Shown: positions 18,561-21,538, numbered from the stretch's first letter. The stretch: 25,675 nucleotides of DNA from Candidatus Helarchaeota ASGARD archaeon Hel_GB_B (GCA_005191425.1 SUPR01000047.1:1-25675), one strand, 5' to 3'. Numbers and translations are program-made. Notes: generated by a model from the letters alone, not told the origin.

Positions 18561-19118
18561 ATGTGGAATAAAATGAACTGGAAAATAGACGATATTTTTA
18601 GATTTAAAGTTGTAGTAATCGGCGATGCAGCAGTAGGTAAGACTTCAATTATACGCAAGTATTCTTTAAACCAATTTTCTGAAAATTATAAAATGACTGT
18701 TGGAGCTGATTTTAATGTAAAAGTAGTTAAATTCAAGGATTTGGGTGAAGTCTCTTTAACTATCTGGGATTTTGGAGGTCAAGAAAAGTTTGAAGAAATC
18801 CGCCGATATTATTATTATGGCGCTCACGCAGCTATTATAGTATTTGATATAACTAACAGAGATTCTTTCAACAATATTAAAAAATGGTTAACCGACCTCC
18901 AATCAGAAGTAGGAAATATACCATACTTGATATTGGCAAATAAATCAGATTTACAAGATGATCGACAAGTTTCTAAGTCTGAAATAGACCAATTATCTGA
19001 TGATCTCAAAATAAAAATTTTCGATACTTCCGCTAAAACAGGTGATAATATAGAAAAAGCATTCTATGAAATAGCCAAAGAATGTCTTTCTGCTTATAAT
19101 ATCCAATTTCAAACATAA
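18561..19118 (+). CDS. Rab-like small GTPase (Ras superfamily)
   Basis: G1 GDAAVGKTS, G2 YKMTVGADF, G3 WDFGGQ, G4 NKSD, G5 TSAK; RabF-like motifs VGADF, LTIW, YYYGA, IVFDIT. ATG 18573 is an alternative start. Confidence 0.93.
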   Translation: MWNKMNWKIDDIFRFKVVVIGDAAVGKTSIIRKYSLNQFSENYKMTVGADFNVKVVKFKDLGEVSLTIWDFGGQEKFEEIRRYYYYGAHAAIIVFDITNRDSFNNIKKWLTDLQSEVGNIPYLILANKSDLQDDRQVSKSEIDQLSDDLKIKIFDTSAKTGDNIEKAFYEIAKECLSAYNIQFQT

Positions 19119-19396
19119 TTTTTTTAAAATCAATTCAATTTACTACCCTAAATCATTTTCTTTTTAATTTAATTATTTAAAAATATGACTAAAGACCAAT
19201 TTTCATTTTTATTACAATAAATTTTACTATGGATACCAGTAGTTAATGCATTTTAGTTTTCTATATTGCCCACAATATTAATTATTAAATTTTTTTTAGG
19301 TTTTTATATCTATTGTAAAAGACGATAGTAAGCAGAGAGTACCCTCCATTTAGAATTATAGAAAATTTGATTTGTTTTTTTATATTAGTTGTTTAG

Positions 19397-19412
19397 AAAA
19401 TTAGCTAATTTT
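19397..19412. promoter_or_regulatory. Perfect 16-bp palindrome AAAATTAGCTAATTTT
   Basis: Read directly; intergenic, upstream of thrS. Function unknown. Confidence 0.35.
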
Positions 19413-19663
19413 TAATGTAGTTATAATTAAATTAGAGGCAATATATATCAAGATTTAGTGTTAGTAATATTGTAAATAGGAGACAAGATTATCGAATTTT
19501 TTAAATTAGTAGATTTGATTAAATATTAAATCAAAGATAATAAAGTTTTTAAATTTTAAAAGAAAATCTTTTTCAGTTAGTTATTAATCAATTAATTTTT
19601 TAATTGAGGAGCAAATAAAAAAGACCAATTAGATTTTCATATTGAAATACAACAATTCAAAAA

Positions 19664-19668
19664 AGGTG
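19664..19668 (+). promoter_or_regulatory. Candidate Shine-Dalgarno AGGTG for thrS
   Basis: aaaAGGTGcattaaa-ATT: 7 nt upstream of the ATT that aligns with Met1 of archaeal ThrRS. Confidence 0.6.
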
Positions 19669-19675
19669 CATTAAA

Positions 19676-21538
19676 ATTAGAATATTAACAATTCATTCGG
19701 ACTATATTGAAATCGAAGTTAAAAAGAAAGCAATAAAATCGCCTGAACCAATTAAAGAAAAAAAAATTAAAGTAGGTAATTGTCTTGTAGTTTTTACAGC
19801 GATAGAAAGAGATGATGGATCAGATATAAAAGAAGCTGCAAAAAAGTTAGCGGAGGAAGTTGAAGGAATTTCAAGTCAGATTAGTGAGAAAACCATTGTA
19901 CTATATCCTTATGCACATTTAAGTTCAGATTTAATAAAAGACCAGAATATTGCAATGCAGATTTTAGACGAGACCAAAAAAATATTAGAGGAAAAGAATT
20001 ATATTGTATATAAAGCGCCATTTGGGTGGTATAAAGCATTTAAAATATCTTGTAAAGGGCATCCATTATCTGAATTGTCCCGACAAATTTTTGTTGAGCA
20101 AATTACAAGGGAAGAGGTTGTTAAGGAAATAGAATCAAAATACATCATTTTAACTCCTGAAGGTAAGGAATATAAGATTAATTTAGACAATTTGGACCAG
20201 CTTCAAAACATATTAAAAGAAATTAATAACGAATTACTTGAAAAATATATTTATTCTGAAGAATTAGAAGGAATTCCACATAAAGAACCTCCATCAATTT
20301 CTGCAATGCAACATTTAGAATTAGTGGATTATGCTCCAGAAGCTGATGCAGGTCATTTTAAGTTTTTTCCAAAAGGAAAATTAATTTTTGACTTAATTTG
20401 TGATTGGGCATTTGAAATTGCAGTTAATAGATTACATGCAATCGAAATTGATACACCAATTTTATATAATTGGGATGATCCAGAAATTAAAAAACAAGGG
20501 CTTTCTTTTCATGAAAAACATTACATAGTGACCGGTGCAGATACCAAGAAAAAATTAATTTTAAGATTTGCAGGAGATTTTGGACTATTTAAAATGATGA
20601 AAAAAGCAAAAATTAGTTATAAAAGTCTACCACTTCGGGTTTATGAATTTTCTAAAAGTTTTCGATATGAAAAACATGGTGAATTAACCGGGTTGCGTAG
20701 ATTACGAGGTTTTCATATGCCAGATATTCACTGTTTTACAGCCAATTTAGATAAAGGTTGGGAAGAATATCAAGAATTATATCGTCATTATGATGATTTA
20801 GCTAAAGGGACAGGCATTGAATTCGCTGTTGTATTTAGAGTAGTGGACACTTTTTATGAAAAAAATAAAAATAAAATAGTCGAATTATTAAAATACTCAA
20901 AATTACCAGCTTTTATTGAAATACTATCTTCAATGAAACATTATTGGGCTGTTAAACATGAGTTTCAAGGGATTGATTCTGTTGGAGGTAATTGTCAACT
21001 TTGCACAGTCCAGTTAGATGTTGTTGATTCTGAAACTTATGGACTCACATATACAGATAAAGATGGAGAAAAAAAGCCATTTATTATTGTTCATTCATCA
21101 TTGGGGAGTATAGAAAGATGGATGTTTTCAATATTAGAAGATGCATTTAAAAAGGAAAAACCGATGCTACCTATTTGGCTGTCCCCTACACAAGTAAGAA
21201 TTATTCCGGTTCAAATTGATAAAAATTTGATGGACTATTGTGAGAAAATTTCTGAGAAATTAGAGTCTAGCAAAATACGCGTTGATATTGATGACCGAGA
21301 CGAAACGCTGTCCAAAAGAATCAGAAATGCGGAACTTGAATGGATACCTTACATTGTCGTGATTGGTAATGAAGAATTAAATACAAATAAATTAGCTATA
21401 AGAATAAGAGAAGATAATAGCCAAAAGAAATTAGAATTAGACAAATTGATTTCAATTGTTAAAGATAAAACCAGTAATATGCCTTTTAGAAAATTAAGCC
21501 TATCAAAATATATATCAAGACGTCCGTCATTTATTTAA
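19676..21538 (+). CDS. thrS: Threonine--tRNA ligase, archaeal type with N-terminal editing domain (620 aa from ATT 19676)
   Basis: 93 sense codons upstream of ATG 19955 read IRILTIHSDYIEIEVKKKAIKSPE...LYPYAHLSSD; then KAPFGWYKAFKISCKGHPLSELSR, FRYEKHGELTGLRRLRGFHMPDIH, HSSLGSIER and the anticodon-binding domain WLSPTQVRII. Confidence 0.95.
   Translation: MRILTIHSDYIEIEVKKKAIKSPEPIKEKKIKVGNCLVVFTAIERDDGSDIKEAAKKLAEEVEGISSQISEKTIVLYPYAHLSSDLIKDQNIAMQILDETKKILEEKNYIVYKAPFGWYKAFKISCKGHPLSELSRQIFVEQITREEVVKEIESKYIILTPEGKEYKINLDNLDQLQNILKEINNELLEKYIYSEELEGIPHKEPPSISAMQHLELVDYAPEADAGHFKFFPKGKLIFDLICDWAFEIAVNRLHAIEIDTPILYNWDDPEIKKQGLSFHEKHYIVTGADTKKKLILRFAGDFGLFKMMKKAKISYKSLPLRVYEFSKSFRYEKHGELTGLRRLRGFHMPDIHCFTANLDKGWEEYQELYRHYDDLAKGTGIEFAVVFRVVDTFYEKNKNKIVELLKYSKLPAFIEILSSMKHYWAVKHEFQGIDSVGGNCQLCTVQLDVVDSETYGLTYTDKDGEKKPFIIVHSSLGSIERWMFSILEDAFKKEKPMLPIWLSPTQVRIIPVQIDKNLMDYCEKISEKLESSKIRVDIDDRDETLSKRIRNAELEWIPYIVVIGNEELNTNKLAIRIREDNSQKKLELDKLISIVKDKTSNMPFRKLSLSKYISRRPSFI

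Follow-up and report, generated by a model that had tools for sequence, protein, structure and literature searches.

The gene for threonyl-tRNA synthetase (thrS) in the window, by which we mean the whole stretch of DNA analysed (25,675 nt, the entire length of one contig of a 3.54-Mb, 182-contig MAG, 28% GC), probably begins at an ATT codon at position 19676, where an ordinary initiator tRNA, led by a Shine-Dalgarno (SD) motif, would start a normal ThrRS of 620 amino acids in a lineage tolerant of near-cognate starts. AUU initiation is rare and regulatory in bacteria (infC, pcnB), and archaeal initiation is usually described with AUG, GUG and UUG only. SD-driven AUU initiation of thrS, proposed in an earlier note on this DNA, gained comparative support from orthologues and from SD spacing, but the thrS-specific translational control suggested along with it did not. 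Below, G000 is the genome carrying the window and G001 is a genome of the same genus (sister species). The thrS locus comprises the following features.

19594 to 19624, + strand: block conserved with the upstream region of G001 (TTTTAAT ... CAAATAAAAA), a possible BRE/TATA promoter by inference
19643 to 19645, + strand: in-frame TGA closing the thrS frame upstream
19655 to 19657, + strand: ATT, chosen as start by a single public record (627 aa); improbable
19664 to 19668, + strand: AGGTG Shine-Dalgarno motif, 7 nt before ATT 19676
19676 to 19678, + strand: ATT, most likely thrS initiation codon (Met via initiator tRNA), from orthologue alignment, Met1 alignment and SD offset
19676 to 19954, + strand: 93 editing-domain codons (Pfam PF08915) omitted by canonical-start gene calls
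19676 to 21538, + strand: thrS, full-length archaeal-type threonyl-tRNA synthetase, 620 aa plus stop, Pfam domains in order
19682 to 19684, + strand: ATA, chosen as start by two public records (618 aa); a less likely alternative
19955 to 19957, + strand: ATG, start of Prodigal-type callers (527-aa product); internal Met94, probably no start

On recheck, all coordinates given for this gene in the earlier note (the TGA, a second in-frame stop 5' of it at TAA 19616-19618, ATG 19955, the 93 codons, AGGTG and the 620-aa product) were exact. Past TGA 19643 the frame reads N T T I Q K R C I K I R I L T I H S D and contains near-cognate codons at 19655 (ATT), 19670 (ATT), 19676 (ATT) and 19682 (ATA). 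Its earliest ATG, GTG or TTG is ATG 19955, separated from ATT 19676 by 93 sense codons, and no ATG was found in any frame between 19540 and 19954. At the codon frequencies of thrS itself, 93 codons free of ATG, GTG and TTG have a probability of about 0.03, and G001 thrS also lacks these three codons over the same 93-codon stretch past codon 1. The gap alone is only mildly unusual; a whole conserved domain with no canonical start ahead of it exceeds chance. The archaeal ThrRS editing domain (PF08915) was matched with an E-value of 2.9e-45 over model positions 2-137 of 137, from codon 19679 onward, and was followed in the expected order by the class II catalytic core (PF00587) and the HGTP anticodon-binding domain (PF03129), both above gathering score. 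The YPYAHLSS block of the editing domain is conserved, and thrS is the sole ThrRS match in G000. Its residues 1-620 are 75% identical to the G001 orthologue. Codons 2-93 have evolved relative to G001 as has the remainder of the gene (dN 0.19, dS ~1.6, dN/dS ~0.11), a pairwise ratio that covers both branches and does not isolate the period after loss of the ATG.

ATT 19676 had been placed where archaeal ThrRS has Met1, and G001, all 178 further relatives and the Pyrococcus abyssi structures agree with that placement. G001 reads ATG AGG ATA CTA ACA where the window reads ATT AGA ATA TTA ACA, and the aligned codon in order-level relatives is ATG in G003, ATG in G002 and TTG in G005. A stop precedes Met1 by one to three codons in G001 (three), G003 and G005, and by 20 in G002. 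Inspection of orthologue starts, which the earlier note had put forward as a check, was extended, in collections of genomes and metagenomes, to 178 further archaeal-type thrS loci; the aligned codon was ATG in 162, TTG in 14, GTG in 2 and any other codon in none. The contig scans, which were free of records from the window's species, surveyed 160 distant thrS loci. At the protein level, residues 1-142 align end to end with residues 1-143 of the P. abyssi editing-domain chain (E-value 3e-39), and residue 1, encoded by ATT 19676, falls on Met1 of PDB 2HL1/1Y2Q, that is, on the first residue of a solved, functional domain (PDB 1Y2Q, 2HL1, 3PD2). The P. abyssi gene, unlike thrS of the window, has a canonical start, as do 178 of the 178 relatives surveyed.

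The closest named protein matches of this ThrRS are labelled Promethearchaeota and Sigynarchaeota. Of two relatives about 70% identical, P0002 and P0003, the former has a product that begins with L. In class-level relatives (G007-G030), ThrRS open frames are ~690-770 aa long and match from residue 50-70 onward, and many of these genomes encode the editing domain separately, in a gene of ~145 aa. In the window's order ThrRS is of the fused archaeal type, and beyond its closest relatives named matches come mostly from DPANN lineages (55-57% identity). This distribution suggests that thrS may have been replaced or transferred in one of these lineages.

The spacing of the SD motif was compared with that of the genome's own starts. 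GGTG before 852 unambiguous G000 starts is sharply concentrated at offsets -14 to -9, with a peak at -12/-11. It occurs at -13 to -9 in 8.2% of 849 clear starts (0.4% at a control offset), and an SD 4-mer is correctly spaced in 28.7% of them (1.6% at a control offset). GGTG 19665 lies at -11 from ATT 19676, the modal SD offset of G000; the earlier claim of an SD 7 nt ahead of the ATT therefore stood, at a spacing that fits this distribution. No 16S rRNA gene was found in the MAG, so the anti-SD of G000 was deduced from motif enrichment only. TTG makes up 21% of unambiguous G000 starts and GTG is rare (4.6%); an SD is present at 42% of TTG starts versus 26% of ATG starts. The thrS ATG of G001 has no well-spaced SD, whereas the ATT of the window has a perfect one, and both contrasts fit a putative compensation of weak start codons by SD strength. 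Further upstream, the block at about 19594-19624 is the sole conserved stretch of an otherwise diverged 300-nt alignment with G001, and a promoter there could possibly yield an SD-containing leader of ~25-35 nt. The intergenic region before thrS (19119-19675) measures 557 nt and has no ORF of at least 40 aa and no Rfam match.

We screened G000 irrespective of SD motifs by scoring frames that are open and coding-like 5' of their first canonical start. Near the top of this screen stood thrS, alongside folD, cbf5 and a GH2 glycosidase gene, and in 4/4 of these GGTG lies 9-12 nt ahead of an in-frame ATT, ATA, ATC or ACG (genome baseline 8.2%). A second, SD-anchored count took near-cognate codons that are correctly spaced from an SD and are followed by no canonical start over 15 codons or more, and returned 47 codons (ATT 19, ATA 13, ATC 7, ACG 5, CTG 3). 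Control offsets gave 14-21 (five upstream offsets) and 7-12 (two downstream offsets), which leaves an excess of ~25-30 genes under strict criteria, a lower bound. The loci outside the window that were checked with Pfam and orthologues are listed here with their probable start codons, together with the gene for initiation factor aIF1.

C45:9627-10475 (L181): folD, start ACG or ATA; next canonical start +81 codons, removing the catalytic domain; G001 has ATG at the ACG
C99:29220-30218 (L182): cbf5, start ATT; next canonical start +108 codons, removing the DKCLD domain
C178:1810-2418 (L185): small Arf/Rag-like GTPase, start ATC; next canonical start +30 codons, removing the P-loop; ATG in three relatives
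C19:13025-15322 (L191): GH2 glycosidase, start ATC; next canonical start 160 codons downstream
C107:21544-21861, - strand: aIF1/SUI1, single copy in G000; no canonical start before the ICPKC zinc knuckle

In folD, cbf5, the GTPase and the GH2 enzyme GGTG sits at -9 to -12, the Pfam domains start 3-13 residues from the near-cognate codons, and the canonical start of the GH2 gene would remove an N-terminal sugar-binding domain (residues 3-167). In cbf5 of G001, ATT is kept at the same -12 SD offset and is followed by TTG. Several high-scoring start-less frames that resemble antisense shadows or possible frameshift fragments were excluded from the count, and FlpD (C122), a CoA-ligase-like gene (C104) and MazG (C128) were set aside as genes in which a nearby canonical start could be the real one. 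The frame of a DGC-domain protein (C125:24773-25207, L192) has 144 codons with zero ATG, GTG or TTG, and close to its 5' end a G-rich stretch (TGGGGGGTA) precedes ATC codons. Taken across the genome, the pattern looks like a relaxed use of start codons, not a switch specific to thrS.

The gene for aIF1, the factor that proofreads start codons, shows the same feature over a wider range of relatives (L213-L241). In G000 an ATA has GGTGA 9 nt ahead of it, and a canonical start is not reached until 34 codons in; G001 has the same GGTGA/ATA arrangement, G003 and G005 have an ATA behind GGAG, and in three order-level genomes the start is TTG. A canonical start is missing from 17 of 23 class-level loci, which instead retain a conserved ATT, replaced by ATC in one, at five or six codons ahead of the zinc knuckle; the remaining six have GTG or TTG. 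A non-AUG start of this kind (ATT, ATC or ATA) occurs in 3/5 related families sampled, and most other copies have TTG or GTG. Three of the genes differ in how far the trait extends: in a comparison of the two species thrS has lost its ATG recently, with ATG retained in the sister species, the ATT of cbf5 is common to both, and the non-AUG start of aIF1 is kept across the class. The literature searched (including PMC7531240, a review listing archaeal starts, and PMC6237735) names AUG, GUG and UUG only for Archaea and does not mention a non-AUG start of aIF1.

The tRNA-Met(CAU) of G000 is a standard initiator (CAU anticodon, A1:U72, three G-C pairs), a finding that concerns the single such tRNA detected in a very incomplete set, as Aragorn recovered just 6-8 tRNAs in the MAG. 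When introns were allowed, one of six tRNAs was called as tRNA-Pyl(CUA), with low confidence, most tRNAs of the MAG having been missed.

One reading of these data, possible but doubtful, is a stringency regulon made up of the near-cognate starts, in which aIF1 abundance would co-tune thrS, folD, cbf5 and tens of AUU, AUA, AUC and ACG genes. According to a passage of PMC4705826 that cites Hasenöhrl et al., aIF1 of Sulfolobus discriminates against AUU in vitro. The aIF1 gene keeps a non-AUG start, and on this reading the level of aIF1 would therefore be self-limiting and initiation stringency low. If true, such a regulon would parallel, in Archaea, the feedback loops of IF3/infC and eIF1, but with housekeeping genes as clients.

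Narrower, and unlikely, is the reading of the ATT as a regulatory device dedicated to thrS, by which ThrRS synthesis would answer initiation stringency or ThrRS itself, as AUU does in infC. The in vitro rejection of AUU by aIF1 speaks for it, as does the conserved non-AUG start of aIF1 in the clade, by which AUU-started genes would in principle respond to the aIF1 level. The thrS gene of Escherichia coli, moreover, is under translational autoregulation. That system concerns the same enzyme, and its control point is initiation, as it would be here; it works by a leader that mimics tRNA-Thr and leads to translational autorepression, whereas thrS of the window has neither a stable leader structure nor an Rfam match, and its archaeal-type product has an N-terminus unlike that of E. 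coli ThrRS. We found no structured leader near the SD that would mimic the tRNA-Thr anticodon arm: the start region (19640-19720) has an MFE of -2.1 kcal/mol and is less structured than shuffled sequences, 197 of 200 of which fold at least as well. An Rfam scan of 19100-19760 returned no family at E < 0.2, only a chance-level match.

Closest among known systems are infC and pcnB of E. coli. In these and in thrS an intact housekeeping gene has AUU in place of AUG as the codon of its true N-terminus, with an SD at functional spacing, a start missed by gene finders and decoding by the normal initiator tRNA (predicted for thrS). As in cases of the infC/pcnB type, thrS has no canonical upstream start, AUU at the position of the orthologue start, and an SD spacing typical of the organism. 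The fidelity factor would be aIF1 in the archaeal host of thrS in place of the IF3 that acts on infC. The infC AUU, however, is conserved and mediates IF3 autoregulation, whereas the thrS ATT is confined to one species, with ATG in G001 and a non-canonical start in 0/178 relatives, and no gene-specific circuit is evident. The arrangement is, moreover, shared by unrelated genes (folD, the GH2 enzyme, the GTPase), and relatives start folD and the GTPase with ATG. Because the ATT is derived and species-specific, no leader structure or RNA element was found, and many genes are alike in this respect, the infC-like control of thrS raised in the earlier note was not borne out; genome-wide tolerance of weak starts explains the thrS codon, so gene-specific control is not needed.

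It is about as improbable that translation begins at another near-cognate codon in the frame, namely ATA 19682 (618 aa), ATT 19670 (622 aa) or ATT 19655 (627 aa). All three lie in the thrS frame past TGA 19643, public annotations have chosen 19682 and 19655, and aIF1 of G000 probably begins with AUA, as a start at 19682 would. The SD, however, would be at -17 from ATA 19682 (0-1 cases among 852 starts) and at -5 from ATT 19670 (0 cases among 852), both outside the observed distribution, and ATT 19655 sits 5' of the SD, with GGTG downstream of the codon. ATT 19655 has no counterpart in thrS orthologues and ATA 19682 falls two codons within the conserved N-terminus M-R-I-L; 19676 alone coincides with the start codon of every orthologue.

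Frameshifting or recoding from an upstream start was rejected, as no frame between 19540 and the ATT contains an ATG; TTG 19642 and GTG 19666 are out of frame and open frames of 10 and 2 codons that both end at TAA 19672-19674, and reading TGA 19643 as sense would add eight codons and still no start. The 10-codon frame, which contains GTG 19666, ends 1 nt before ATT 19676 and has no SD of its own. G001 has an in-frame mini-frame (ATG AGG ATA TGA) 21 nt upstream of its thrS that repeats the first three codons of the gene. These short frames are probably incidental in both genomes.

A start at ATG 19955, with a 527-aa ThrRS devoid of a working editing domain and the 93 upstream codons as a recently silenced remnant, is very improbable. 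This ATG is the earliest canonical start and is chosen by most callers, some archaea carry catalytic and editing functions on separate proteins, and the class-level relatives described above have a separate editing-domain gene; no such gene was found in G000, however, and a start at 19955 would split the editing fold between the YPYAHLS and FGWYKAF blocks. No SD 4-mer occurs within 25 nt upstream of ATG 19955, whereas the SD at 19664 is perfectly spaced for the ATT, and neither a stop nor a frameshift interrupts the 93 codons, which show the same evolution relative to G001 as the rest of the gene.

To these calls the public records add a view of the codon itself. A cluster of ThrRS proteins at 90% identity comprises six products from NCBI, JGI and ENA records, on about six contigs (163,200 nt, 29,025 nt, the 25,675 nt of the window, 5,465 nt, and others no longer than 18,562 nt). 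A length of 618 aa (ATA 19682) was called for two sequences, which lie on four contigs; two sequences, including that of JGI on the 163-kb contig, were called at 527 aa (ATG 19955), and one record at 627 aa (ATT 19655); the last spells I-K-I-R-I-L, and Ile therefore stands at the Met1 position. None of the same-species records in the cluster has a canonical N-terminal start. The ThrRS on the 163,200-nt contig differs by one Ser-to-Leu change, by which variant this contig represents a separate population. The records of the window's own contig carry the 527-aa product, which confirms that standard callers truncate the editing domain, as had been predicted. An error of sequencing, assembly or consensus at base 19678, with ATG as the true codon, would need only one G-to-T difference in a 182-contig MAG, yet it is extremely improbable: same-species contigs of varied size from three databases, if possibly from related samples, all lack a canonical start, and since one of them is a variant strain a random error in one assembly is very unlikely; one record has Ile at Met1, and the ATA, ATC, ACG and CTG of other G000 genes are not accounted for by any single error mode.

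SD-led AUU initiation at 19676 can then be set out as a sequence of steps. A G-to-T change at 19678 would have removed the thrS ATG after the split from the sister species. AGGTG 19664-19668 would base-pair with the 16S rRNA 3' end, setting the AUU in the P site, where the CAU initiator tRNA would read it with a third-position mismatch and insert Met, and the 620-aa enzyme would be made at an efficiency probably below that of AUG. Initiation at AUU, insertion of Met and the reduced efficiency are all inferred from the nucleotide and protein comparisons above. Loss of the ATG would have been tolerated because, in tens of genes, aIF1 included, the lineage appears to accept AUU, AUA, AUC, ACG and CUG where a strong SD site precedes them.

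As a further case of an SD-led AUU start, thrS is notable for lying in an archaeon, for being an essential single-copy gene and for belonging to a pattern seen across the genome, the fidelity factor included. Gene callers drop 93 residues from the organism's sole ThrRS, and the public lengths of 527, 618 and 627 aa conflict; tens of genes are similarly miscalled, which biases the proteomes, phylogenies and domain counts derived from Asgard MAGs of this kind. That an essential single-copy gene should carry a predicted AUU start, and that a natural population should have fixed it, indicates a tolerance of third-position mismatches by SD-led initiation in this lineage.
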